From assembly GCA_016699385.1 (NCBI GenBank), contig CP064974.1, positions 692,654-756,653 on the forward strand: a stretch of 64,000 nucleotides of DNA, given 5' to 3'. Position 1 is the first letter of the stretch, and every line of letters begins with the position of its first letter. Under the pieces are notes generated by a model. That model had not been told where the DNA came from. It saw only the letters and a list, made by a program, of their open reading frames with translations, and ran no database searches. The translations under genes were made by a program, and so were the position numbers. This DNA comes from Candidatus Moraniibacteriota bacterium. GTDB taxonomy: Bacteria > Patescibacteriota > Minisyncoccia > Moranbacterales > UBA1568. Below, piece by piece: positions 784 to 1,220 of this stretch.

Positions 784-857
784 TTGCGGGGGCAGGATTT
801 GAACCTGCGACCTCCTGGTTATGAGCCAGGCGAGCTGCCAGACTGCTCCACCCCGCG
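784..857 (-). tRNA. tRNA-fMet (anticodon CAT), initiator-type
   Basis: Cloverleaf folded by hand: acceptor CGCGGGG/CCCCGCA with a C1:A72 mismatch, A11:U24 in the D stem, anticodon loop CUCAUAA, T loop TTCAAAT, discriminator A, no encoded CCA. Confidence 0.85.
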
Positions 858-1082
858 ATATTTGAGTTGCTCTTTTCCGCAACCTGATTTCCAATATTTT
901 TCTCTTTTTCTTGCTGTTAACCTGTCATCGCAATACTCAATAATTTTCACGGACAAAATCTCCTTCTGTCTTGTTGATTGAGTTTTTCCTCTTTTATGTT
1001 CACTAAGCCTTCTTTCGAAGTTATCAGTCATTCCAACATACACAGTTCCATTCAAAAAGTAAAGTGCATACACTGTGTACAT
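819..1082 (-). CDS. GIY-YIG nuclease, small YhbQ/UPF0213-like (COG2827)
   Basis: 87 aa MYTVYALYFLNGTVYVGMTDNFERRLSEHKRGK... carries the GIY..YVG and ERRLSEH motifs. Its last 12 codons are encoded by the 5' half of tRNA-fMet, and its TAA stop is the U36-A37-A38 of that anticodon loop. Its ATG lies 2 nt after the end of the upstream partial tRNA copy. Confidence 0.7.
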   Translation of the reverse strand: MYTVYALYFLNGTVYVGMTDNFERRLSEHKRGKTQSTRQKEILSVKIIEYCDDRLTARKREKYWKSGCGKEQLKYRGVEQSGSSPGS

Positions 1083-1084
1083 AA

Positions 1085-1165
1085 ATTTGAACCTGCAACC
1101 TCCTGGTTACCTGCCTGCCGGCAGGCAGGTGAGCCAGGCGAGCTGCCAGACTGCTCCACCCCGCG
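1085..1165 (-). pseudogene. Truncated tRNA-fMet copy (positions 1 to about 60) with a 20-nt perfect palindrome inserted in the anticodon
   Basis: Matches the tRNA-fMet at 784-857 from the acceptor 5' end through the T loop with one SNP. It lacks the 3' half of the T stem and the acceptor 3' strand. CCTGCCTGCCGGCAGGCAGG is inserted at 1110-1129 between anticodon positions 35 and 36. Confidence 0.6.
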
Positions 1166-1220
1166 ATAAATACTGCGCTATACTTCCCAAGAGTACAGAG
1201 AACTCTCAAAAAAGTCAATG

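Follow-up and report, generated by a model that had tools for sequence, protein, structure and literature searches.

The tRNA-fMet locus described here raises the question of why a short GIY-YIG nuclease gene should be wedged between a broken and an intact copy of an essential tRNA gene, with its reading frame running on into the intact one. From our analysis of the window, a 64,000-nt stretch of a Candidatus Moraniibacteriota chromosome, we think that the locus is probably a homing-type selfish cassette, built around a UPF0213/Slx1-like nuclease, that targets the loops of tRNA genes and mends the damage with a duplicated tRNA segment. It is a member of a large family of selfish cassettes that live inside tRNA genes, each consisting of a stand-alone GIY-YIG nuclease of ∼75 residues and a conserved 20-bp palindrome. 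Within the part of the literature that is searchable, which is incomplete, we found no earlier description of this family, nor any account of the architecture, the palindrome or UPF0213 genes linked to tRNAs.

Read along the minus strand, positions 1-36 of a dead tRNA-fMet copy (segment a; 1165-1130) are followed by a perfect 20-nt palindrome, CCTGCCTGCCGGCAGGCAGG (1129-1110), by tRNA positions 37-61 (segment b; 1109-1085), by the dinucleotide TT and by an 87-codon ORF (1082-819), the last 12 codons and TAA stop of which are inside an intact tRNA-fMet (857-784). By blastn, segment a matches 822-857 at 36/36 positions (100%) and segment b matches its live counterpart at 24/25; the former is contained in an exact 39-nt direct repeat (822-860 and 1130-1168) with a spacing of 308 nt. 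The palindrome, which has the structure (CCTG)2-CCGG-(CAGG)2, is a clean insert between anticodon bases A35 and U36 of the upstream copy, occurs once in the window and was matched in none of 100 shuffled sequences. Segment b ends in the T loop, 2 nt 5′ of the ATG at 1082, carries a purine-rich stretch (AGGAGG/GCAGG) 5′ of the start codon, and is conserved in the related loci L117 and L118 despite saturation of synonymous sites in the ORF. ARAGORN (783-857) and Rfam (784-857, 63.8 bits) both identify the downstream copy as a complete tRNA-Met(CAT), with the C1×A72 mismatch and the A11:U24 pair present, and with only two of the three G:C pairs usual in the anticodon stem of an initiator. Its positions 1-36 form codons 76-87 of the ORF (RGVEQSGSSPGS) and U36-A37-A38 form the stop codon (821-819), such that the tail and stop together (819-857, minus strand) are encoded by tRNA-fMet 1-39. 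The repeat, the palindrome, the 87-codon ORF, the complete initiator tRNA and the stop in the anticodon loop are all as described in the original prediction, with the correction that position 1 of the upstream tRNA copy is at 1165 rather than 1166.

The cassette-bearing transcription unit begins with a tRNA-Ile(GAT) gene (1220-1294, minus strand; ARAGORN, Rfam 72.7 bits) and is closed by a terminator-like hairpin (635-666, minus strand), an inverted repeat that is kept in both empty and filled loci and at which the terminator scan made no call. The sequence that separates tRNA-Ile from the dead copy (1166-1219, minus strand) appears, on alignment with L121, to be the decayed 3′-end relic of an earlier cassette unit: at this position L121 holds a recognisable remnant of an ORF 3′ end ('...KYWKSGCGKEQLKY'), relative to which the window has a 55-nt deletion, and a similar relic is found in L249. 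On the other side of the intact tRNA there is a second, ORF-less scar (688-751, minus strand), which aligns with the tRNA and with other loci as a degenerate copy of the 3′ part of tRNA-fMet (AGGCTCA...AAAATCTTTCCCCCACAAC), its exact registration within the tRNA being tentative. Its T loop, by blastn, holds an insert of 38 nt (707-744) in the form of a double hairpin; the scar is present in L119-L124, L248 and L249 and missing in L245 and L246.

The cassette has YgjP, CAP and an ABC transporter as neighbours. An exact look-up of the YgjP protein of the window returned only a 2.5-kb contig ending at tRNA-Ile, and the empty site was found through homologues. In L245, from a complete Moraniibacteriota genome, CAP, YgjP, tRNA-Ile, tRNA-fMet and the ABC transporter are arranged in the same order as in the window, with tRNA-Ile again 5′ of a tRNA-fMet that is identical to that of the window at 74/74 positions. 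L245 has no ORF, palindrome or duplicate and thus represents an empty site, one whose YgjP is only 67% identical to that of the window and whose empty state could be a precise loss. The ORF is also missing from L248; the filled sites are those of the window, L119-L124, L246 and L249. The filled site differs from the empty one by a single 308-nt block at anticodon position 35/36, comprising the palindrome, tRNA 37-61, TT, the ORF and tRNA 1-36. As tRNA 1-36 is repeated at the end of the block, the insert restores an intact tRNA downstream, and what is left upstream is a dead 5′ tRNA copy interrupted by the palindrome. The expectation that the gene would be hard to lose without losing tRNA-fMet was not borne out, as the flanking direct repeats permit precise deletion and empty sites exist.

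Comparison of filled loci points to movement of the cassette. Between the window and L121 the YgjP gene is identical at 609/672 positions (9.4% different), in contrast with 223/225 for the ORF, 20/20 for the palindrome and 74/74 for the tRNA, and the flanks differ on both sides of the cassette; L246 and L249 share 85% identity in the ORF versus 59% in YgjP. A cassette that is ∼99% identical beside a neighbour gene that has diverged by 9% must have moved, and on these identities it is younger than its genomic background, having spread horizontally.

The ORF (819-1082) encodes a 75-residue catalytic domain (codons 1-75; 858-1082, minus strand) followed by the tRNA-encoded tail, which is predicted to be disordered. 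The Pfam GIY-YIG domain (PF01541) is matched over residues 1-66 with 48.8 bits against a cut-off of 22.6. No other Pfam domain scored above threshold, the next being the related T5orf172 (17.5 bits, cut-off 20), and neither Pfam nor the AlphaFold model gave a sequence-specific DNA-binding domain (NUMOD, IENR1 or HTH). Among 29 homologues, residues R25, H29, E49 and E61 do not vary and Y15 and G17 hardly vary; the motif also contains Y5, which is not among the residues listed as invariant. The AlphaFold model has a beta-beta-alpha-beta-alpha fold (strands 2-9 and 14-19, helix 22-31, strand 42-51, helix 54-65) with a core pLDDT of 86-94 except in the loop of residues 31-40 (∼67). A profile search of the PDB returned the UPF0213 proteins 1zg2 (E = 7e-9) and 1ywl (4.6e-8), and Foldseek ranked the same two first and second, followed by Slx1 (7cq3/7cq2), with a probability of 0.89-0.92 and weak E-values of 1.7e-3 to 0.2. 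By sequence profile and fold the protein is a member of the UPF0213/YhbQ/Slx1-like branch, and a pN/pS of ∼0.19 relative to L117, with synonymous sites saturated, argues together with the invariant residues and the confident fold that the ORF is a working gene under purifying selection. Annotation pipelines had been expected to miss or split the locus; the NCBI annotation already includes the 87-aa protein, and the features that it leaves out are the palindrome and the dead tRNA copy.

That the gene takes its C-terminus and stop codon from the tRNA is literally correct, and such a tail recurs in all ten fMet-linked loci, in two reading frames. The further idea that the tRNA has been functionally co-opted finds no such support: 53 of 71 family members terminate before the tRNA, most of them within 0-10 nt, and tail residues 78-87 have a pLDDT below 50 in the AlphaFold model. 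The use of two frames, the prevalence of earlier stops and the predicted disorder together indicate that the tail and its anticodon-loop stop are a by-product of the ORF abutting tRNA position +1. The absence of any difference from L117 across the tail and stop (0/39) arises because the tRNA constrains the sequence. Should RNase P cut the precursor first, the message would be left without a stop codon, which could throttle production of the nuclease.

The same architecture recurs across genomes. The ORF is directly upstream of a same-strand tRNA in 70 of 80 genome loci, the tRNAs concerned being fMet, Leu (×5), Asp, Val, Gly, Arg, Asn and Ser; seven loci have a mirror arrangement, in which the intact tRNA is followed by the ORF and then by a dead 3′ copy with the palindrome, and three are arrays with palindromes. 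A coincidental arrangement was rejected, given that in 80/80 related loci the ORF adjoins a same-strand tRNA or palindrome copies. The order of fragment, palindrome, ORF and tRNA is found on at least 12 tRNA species in several phyla, and the units of tandem arrays are near-identical. Across the family, segment a matches the live tRNA at ∼100% identity when additional hairpin inserts are taken into account (91% by ungapped count), as against only 64% for segment b, which is internal to the element. In the ORF tree (neighbour-joining, 74 residues, no support values, several MAG taxonomic labels doubtful) clades track tRNA type, and members from CPR and Bacteroidota interleave. The family comprises 2,528 clusters (50% identity) at E≤1e-10, and its carriers include cultured Flavobacteriaceae such as Dokdonia pacifica DSM 25597, Arenibacter, Formosa undariae and Algoriphagus limi; tblastn against cultured phages and plasmids returned no family match. 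At present its members have no annotation beyond “GIY-YIG nuclease family protein”, and many of the gene calls translate the tRNA fragment and palindrome as an N-terminal extension ('MAELVD..LPAGRQ', 'PACRQA'). The empty orthologous site, the recurrence across tRNAs and phyla, and the near-identical cassettes in diverged backgrounds support, and extend, the proposal of a homing-endonuclease-like element that inserted into and duplicated part of the tRNA gene.

The palindrome is the conserved cis element of the family, and is also far more widely scattered than the ORF. For at least 61 of the 71 ORFs with a downstream tRNA, the sequence CCTGCCTGCCGGCAGGCAGG, or a variant of it in Flavobacteriaceae, is inserted in the dead tRNA copy, at 13-61 nt from the ATG, and the form of the palindrome goes with the ORF clade, the T variant of Flavobacteriaceae being one example; the palindrome is identical across phyla and in phages. 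All 13 distinct tRNA insertion sites are in loops or at loop/stem edges (60% expected, p = 0.0013, with the Leu X=23 sites scored using the 3-bp D stem of tRNA-Leu). Most likely the nuclease has the palindrome as its cognate site, in hairpin or cruciform form, and the palindrome would also spread alone as a 20-bp mini-insert. Neither a tRNA nor a family ORF is nearby at ∼115 of 127 metagenome palindrome sites, or in 34 of the 35 viral contigs with the palindrome, and with ∼90% of these copies far from either, the palindrome may have an independent life. Palindrome sites outside tRNAs are enriched in flanking direct repeats (16% vs 6%, p = 1e-4) and show no significant enrichment in hairpin loops (7.8% vs 6.5% at control positions), which weakens the idea of loop targeting as a general rule. 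Palindrome-bearing metagenome contigs contain 11 family ORFs in 680 kb. Within tRNA genes, the palindrome is also found in ORF-less dead copies (L002 2576, L008 6040 and L203), as the only insert in full-length copies (L074 and L027) and in the variable loop of a phage tRNA-fMet (L106), and dead copies collect several different hairpin inserts. Separately, a palindromic insert is tolerated in-frame inside uvrB in L022.

We infer each dynamic step of the homing model that we favour, namely cleavage, transfer and copying. The tRNA promoter probably drives transcription of the cassette, which would be carried in the tRNA precursor. Scans of the cassette detected no promoter of its own, giving only two weak promoter-like matches, both inside the ORF, and no terminator 3′ of the palindrome, and its 5′ region folds no better than shuffled sequence (z = −0.99). 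A nuclease of this kind, with no DNA-binding domain, would act as a structure-specific enzyme and would cut where a tRNA gene, folded as DNA into a cloverleaf or hairpin, has single-stranded loops. Repair of the break would then copy the cassette-bearing allele, which amounts to homing, using as homology arms the tRNA segment upstream and the intact tRNA downstream. Conservation of tRNA sequence would allow the cassette to cross phyla and yet keep it to one tRNA type, and unequal recombination between the repeats would produce tandem arrays, palindrome-only tRNA copies and precise deletions. Some points weigh against this model: a nuclease that cuts loops should still be able to attack the intact tRNA downstream, which leaves immunity of the filled allele without an explanation, the exact conservation of the 20-bp palindrome is not required by it, and it gives no account of how a cassette first gains segments of a new tRNA type. 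It is conceivable, although we would not expect it, that the palindrome and the 75-residue GIY-YIG protein instead constitute a new class of mobile system, in which the enzyme recognises its own hairpin and inserts it with or without the gene. Insertion would be into stretches left unpaired when DNA folds, as in the cloverleaf of a tRNA gene, and would generate target duplications of variable length, the gene-carrying form surviving in tRNA genes because the duplication regenerates the tRNA. Such a system would be analogous to REP elements and RAYTs but built on a structure-specific GIY-YIG nuclease, and the palindrome would then be the smallest known transposable unit of an autonomous family, common to CPR, Bacteroidota and phages.

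A rather unlikely alternative separates the two components altogether. An ORF cassette would make long, variable target duplications through staggered cuts 30-70 nt apart, with selection keeping only those events that spare one intact tRNA, and a separate palindrome mini-element, possibly mobilised in trans by this enzyme or another, would pile up in the dead copy, the only tRNA-like sequence in which insertion is tolerated. Such independence would fit the great excess of palindromes over ORFs in metagenome and viral contigs, the ORF-less dead copies with palindromes, the accumulation of several hairpin inserts in dead copies and the direct repeats at palindrome sites elsewhere. It is difficult to reconcile, however, with the presence of the palindrome a short distance from the ATG in at least 61 of 71 cases, with the tracking of ORF clade by palindrome variant and with the frequency of family ORFs in palindrome-bearing contigs, and the equal decay of segments a and b that it predicts is not observed. 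We regard as improbable a Campbell-type scheme without an integrase, in which recombination between the direct repeats releases a circle (tRNA 1-36, palindrome, tRNA 37-61, ORF) that re-integrates by a single RecA crossover, the nuclease only stimulating recombination or having some other role. The two observed arrangements would correspond to the two possible crossover products, and both the circle-generating repeats and tandem arrays are present, but one side offers only 15-36 nt of homology, circular junctions were not observed, a circle of 308 nt would have no means of replication or transfer, and the conservation of the palindrome is left unaccounted for.

There is very little reason to believe that the ORF is an ordinary host gene, that is, a vertically inherited YhbQ-like housekeeping nuclease in tRNA operons beside tRNA fragments that are unrelated pseudogenes. 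UPF0213 proteins are common on chromosomes, and both the purifying selection on the ORF and the lack of matches in cultured phages or plasmids could be read in this way, but the empty orthologous site contradicts it, as does a cassette identity of 99% against 90.6% for the neighbour gene; the constant order of elements on so many tRNA species, the tandem arrays and the interleaving of CPR and Bacteroidota in the ORF tree are further evidence against it. Scarcely credible is an intron-like or split tRNA, in which the halves would be joined as RNA exons or the palindrome would be a small spliced intron. The position of the palindrome in tRNA loops does recall archaeal non-canonical introns, and the palindrome-only tRNA copies and the phage tRNA-fMet would be in keeping with splicing. 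However, the downstream tRNA is complete alone, which makes any joining of halves unnecessary, the upstream copy lacks the 3′ T-stem and acceptor strand, the 308 nt are mostly ORF and leave no room for a ribozyme, and the same tRNA is uninterrupted at the empty site. The intron-like arrangement put forward in the original prediction, where joining 1166-1130 to 808-784 was to recreate a perfect tRNA, also fails on its coordinates: that join rebuilds no tRNA, the arithmetic requiring 1165-1130 and 821-784. An Rfam search at E≤1 over positions 1-5000, from which an intron or ribozyme was rejected, gave only three tRNAs and two chance matches, and no group I, group II or other intron family.

The homing-type cassette that we favour resembles several known systems in part. 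UPF0213/YhbQ proteins and eukaryotic Slx1, its best profile and fold matches (1zg2, 1ywl and 7cq2/7cq3), share the same minimal domain and REKxxK helix. Slx1 cuts branched and stem-loop DNA without regard to specific sequence, a structure-specific activity that fits insertion sites confined to tRNA loops; it also needs Slx4 and has a RING domain. We know of no mobility or tRNA linkage of YhbQ-type genes. REP elements with their RAYT transposases, and the Rickettsia palindromic elements, are short scattered palindromes, some of which are tolerated in-frame in genes, and in REP/RAYT systems as in the cassette a small nuclease gene is typically flanked by its scattered palindrome. The resemblance goes no further than analogy: RAYTs belong to the HUH/Y1 enzymes and REPs are imperfect palindromes restricted to particular lineages, whereas the cassette has a GIY-YIG enzyme, a 20-bp palindrome that is identical across phyla, and a tRNA duplication. 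With tRNA-integrating islands and prophages the cassette has in common insertion in a tRNA gene, restoration of the gene by a partial tRNA copy and a partial direct repeat. Those elements are kilobases long, use a tyrosine or serine integrase and duplicate the 3′ end, whereas the cassette is 308 nt, duplicates the 5′ part (the 3′ part in the mirror form) and has a palindrome at the junction; no tyrosine or serine recombinase was found in the inserted block, which holds only the GIY-YIG ORF.

Two further systems, the nearest that the literature search turned up, share the setting. SegB, encoded in the tRNA gene cluster of phage T4, is the product of a free-standing GIY-YIG homing endonuclease gene of T-even phages (PMC2330249). 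As with the cassette, SegB-type genes are found among or in tRNA genes and outside introns, are polymorphic in presence between relatives and are inherited preferentially with flanking DNA through break repair, a property that the cassette would share. Seg proteins, however, have at least 200 residues and separate DNA-binding domains, cut specific sequences, and are associated with neither target duplication nor a conserved palindrome, whereas the cassette encodes a catalytic domain only, of ∼75 residues, and rebuilds its target with a duplicated tRNA segment. Group I introns, some of which carry homing endonucleases, occur in tRNA genes of Patescibacteria (PMC13011429), and thus share with the cassette both host phylum and target, the loops of tRNA genes. 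They are self-splicing ribozymes in the sole copy of a gene, whereas no ribozyme was found in the cassette and the functional tRNA is uninterrupted.

For annotation, the family explains why fragments of tRNAs and 'tRNA-???' calls turn up, and why some gene calls are extended at the N or C terminus by translated tRNA and palindrome sequence. It also suggests a candidate biological activity for GIY-YIG proteins of the UPF0213/YhbQ branch, and its occurrence in cultured Flavobacteriaceae makes it directly testable. More broadly, the cassette would represent a new way to parasitise an essential gene, in which the insert brings with it the piece of tRNA that it displaces so that the host keeps a working gene, and in which the conservation of tRNAs would supply near-universal homology arms for spread between phyla.

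On the minus strand, the locus opens with a dead copy of tRNA-fMet positions 1-36 (1165-1130, 100% identity) and continues with a perfect 20-nt palindrome (CCTGCCTGCCGGCAGGCAGG, 1129-1110, read on that strand), a dead copy of positions 37-61 (1109-1085, 24/25 identical), the dinucleotide TT and an 87-codon GIY-YIG ORF running from an ATG at 1082 to a TAA at 821-819. A complete tRNA-Met(CAT) at 857-784 (minus) overlaps the last 39 nt of the ORF, whose stop codon is U36-A37-A38 of this downstream tRNA-fMet. An exact 39-nt direct repeat (822-860 and 1130-1168) recurs at a spacing of 308, and the palindrome, which is unique within the 64-kb window, was matched in 0/100 shuffles. 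The original prediction described this layout of tRNA copies, palindrome, ORF and stop correctly save for a one-base offset, position 1 of the upstream copy being at 1165 and not 1166. The neighbours are genes for a YgjP-like metallopeptidase, a CAP-domain protein and an ABC transporter, with no recombinase gene among them.

Conservation and the predicted structure both indicate that the ORF is a working gene. It matches the GIY-YIG domain (Pfam, 48.8 bits), with key positions invariant or almost so among homologues, and synonymous sites are saturated against an 80%-identical relative (pS 0.76, pN 0.145). Strands and helices are as expected in the predicted structure, which is of high confidence in the core and comes closest, among solved structures, to two UPF0213 proteins and then Slx1, at weak Foldseek E-values. 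Databases already list the exact product as a 'GIY-YIG nuclease family protein', from a 1.11-Mb contig of a Candidatus Moraniibacteriota MAG. Homologues of 53-80% identity share the tRNA-encoded C-terminal peptide in two frames (RGVEQSGSSxGS or AGWSNGSSSGS). This tail is incidental: residues 78-87 are predicted to be disordered (pLDDT <50), the tRNA fixes the sequence of the whole tail (0/39 nt differences from the 80%-identical relative), and in 53/71 family members the ORF ends before the tRNA, mostly 0-10 nt from position +1, so that the overlap is a consequence of the cassette of palindrome, ORF and duplicated tRNA segment abutting tRNA +1. Were RNase P to cut at +1 before translation ends, an fMet-type message would be left without a stop codon.

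The insertion itself can be read from syntenic loci (L-numbers denote compared genome, metagenome or viral loci), reached through homologues of the neighbouring YgjP gene. L245, in a complete Moraniibacteriota genome, has the gene order of the window (CAP, YgjP, tRNA-Ile, tRNA-fMet, terminator hairpin, ABC transporter), a tRNA-Ile to tRNA-fMet spacer of 54 nt and a tRNA-fMet identical to that of the window at 74/74 positions, and carries no ORF, palindrome or partial tRNA copy. On alignment, the filled site equals this empty site plus one 308-nt block at tRNA 36/37, comprising the palindrome, tRNA 37-61, TT, ORF codons 1-75 and tRNA 1-36; equivalently, it may be read as the palindrome at 36/37 plus TT-ORF-tRNA(1-61) at 61/62. 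In the filled locus L246 the native 5′ spacer leads directly into the dead tRNA copy, which identifies the upstream copy as the tRNA gene's original 5′ end. The empty site could be ancestral or could result from precise deletion between the repeats; whichever its origin, the cassette is gained and lost. It is also younger than its genomic background, since between the window and L121 the YgjP gene differs at 63/672 nt and the flanks differ, whereas the ORF (223/225), palindrome (20/20) and tRNA (74/74) are nearly or fully alike, and since L246 and L249 are 85% identical in the ORF but only 59% in YgjP. These comparisons identify the cassette as an insertion that has recently moved. The locus has a second presence/absence polymorphism: in L120, L247, L248 and L249, YgjP and the tRNA cluster are separated by an opposite-strand PhoH/PIN-domain gene, which the window, L119, L121, L245 and L246 lack.

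The window also holds traces of other events. Downstream of the intact gene, a degenerate copy of the tRNA-fMet 3′ part without an ORF (688-751, minus) carries a 38-nt double-hairpin insert, TCCGGTCATTCAACCGGATGCTCCGTCGGATGACTGGG, placed tentatively in its T loop (707-744), so that the tRNA gene is scarred on both sides; L119-L124, L248 and L249 share this scar, and L246 and the empty L245 lack it. The spacer at 1166-1219 is homologous to the 3′ remnant of another cassette's ORF (...KYWKSGCGKEQLKY; L121 ~2600-2690, L249 4910-4945) and appears to be a relic of an earlier unit, suggesting that the locus descends from a tandem array from which one unit was deleted. In L248 (5020-5245) and downstream of the tRNA in L118, the last ~18 nt of tRNA-fMet (AAATCCCACCCCCGCAAC) are repeated after the intact gene, interspersed with further structured inserts; gene calling gave no GIY-YIG ORF for the L248 locus. 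Dead fMet copies also carry, in the D loop, hairpin inserts of a second family with the consensus TCCCGCC-N4-GGCGGGA (L002 2920-2990, L004 3330-3420, L005, L007, L010, L117); the L004 region is an additional full-length fMet copy whose D, anticodon and T loops each contain a different hairpin. At L246 3260-3870, two dead tRNA-Ile copies, one with a palindrome variant and a TCCCGCC hairpin, precede an intact tRNA-Ile and then a different, more typical UPF0213 GIY-YIG ORF of 81 aa, whose TAG stop lies within the D loop of the next dead 3′ tRNA-Ile copy; another GIY-YIG subfamily thus uses the same design.

The arrangement recurs widely. A scan for relatives, taking one genome per species, found 334, and 80 of their loci were retrieved. 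In 70/80 the ORF is directly followed by a tRNA on its own strand (fMet, five Leu isoacceptors, Asp, Val, Gly, Arg, Asn or Ser); seven have the mirrored order of intact tRNA, ORF and dead 3′ part of the same tRNA; and three have tandem arrays and palindromes with no tRNA called, L045 ending ~90 nt past its second ORF. Gapped alignment of each downstream tRNA against the 160 nt preceding the ATG revealed a 5′ copy of that same tRNA into which 20 nt are cleanly inserted, without duplication of the target site. These 20 nt read CCTGCCTGCCGGCAGGCAGG in CPR and several Bacteroidota and CCTGTCTGCCGACAGGCAGG in Flavobacteriaceae, cultured isolates included, and the insert precedes at least 61/71 ORFs, 13-61 nt (median 25) before the ATG. 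The family comprises 2,528 clusters (50% identity, E<=1e-10). Some homologue gene calls translate the palindrome (PACRQAG, LPAGR), as do 27/88 over-long calls among the top 150 cluster representatives, and many over-long calls start with 'MAELVD', the translated 5′ end of tRNA-Leu.

Exact palindrome copies were also found in viral contigs (35) and metagenome contigs (at least 120), ~90% of them, among the matches listed, far from any tRNA or family ORF; family ORFs are nevertheless frequent in palindrome-bearing contigs (11 in 680 kb). Non-tRNA sites showed no hairpin-loop enrichment when tested and are enriched for flanking direct repeats. The palindrome may serve as the cognate site of the nuclease, may travel along as a mini-element, or may do both. 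Its structure is (CCTG)2-CCGG-(CAGG)2, with 16-nt forms lacking one CCTG unit in L008, L010, L017 and L018. Among metagenome and viral loci (L082-L244), copies of the exact 20-mer outside tRNAs are widespread, lying in AT-rich and GC-rich contigs alike, frequently between imperfect direct repeats (e.g. L084, L090, L100, L127, L167, L202) or in short tandem-repeat arrays. A UvrB-like ORF in L022 contains it in-frame (2008-2027; …YLKN-LPAGRQ-VKAEYLHSD…) within a variable part of the protein surface, which recalls the palindromic elements found inside Rickettsia coding genes. Full-length tRNA-Arg(CCT) copies with the palindrome alone in the D loop (L074 3467-3559 and 3635-3727; L027 379-471) stand in tandem beside an intact copy and are labelled 'tRNA-???' by ARAGORN. 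A viral-contig tRNA-fMet with the palindrome at the variable loop (47/48; L106 2239-2330, L083 8616) is still called as a 92-nt tRNA-Met by ARAGORN and might still be functional, since a hairpin there would mimic a long variable arm.

Two models had been proposed for the window locus, a homing-endonuclease-like element in a tRNA gene and an intron-like arrangement. The latter is rejected: the proposed exon join does not add up, as 1165-1130 plus 821-784 would be needed, and the cassette, in contrast to the insertions recently catalogued in Patescibacteria tRNAs (PMC13011429), is not a group I intron. The element model is supported, and greatly extended, by the recurrence, the empty L245 site and the youth of the cassette relative to its background. 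How it moves is suggested by several patterns. In the tRNA 5′ half the palindrome has 13 distinct insertion sites, all of which fall in the 8-9 connector, in the D or anticodon loop, or exactly at a loop/stem edge, and none inside a stem (expected 40%; p = 0.0013); insertions are also known in the T and variable loops. The segment preceding the palindrome matches the live tRNA essentially throughout, whereas that between palindrome and ORF is only 64% identical, with frequent deletions, an asymmetry expected under homing if the former is a homology arm renewed at each transfer and the latter internal cargo. ORF clades track tRNA type, with CPR and Bacteroidota interleaved within the Leu clade, as expected if insertion is guided by conserved tRNA sequence. 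Arrays of near-identical units, and relics of earlier units such as the 1166-1219 spacer, point to unequal recombination between repeats. Taken together, loop sites, asymmetric decay, host range and arrays favour nuclease-driven homing, in which a structure-specific enzyme would drive the cassette into tRNA genes.

Closest in its way of working is T4 SegB, a free-standing GIY-YIG homing endonuclease gene (PMC2330249). The cassette protein lacks the separate DNA-binding domain expected of the SegB-type family, and the cassette goes beyond the SegB-type plan in having a target duplication that is self-complementing and a palindrome that is conserved. Restoration of the tRNA is shared with integrase-borne tRNA-targeting islands; unlike these, the cassette has no recombinase and usually duplicates the tRNA 5′ end. 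No earlier description of this architecture was found in the literature, within the limits of the searchable collection. Judged from its sequence, we regard the cassette as a selfish nuclease gene of the homing type in a new form, belonging to a family that is widespread and experimentally accessible in cultured Flavobacteriaceae.
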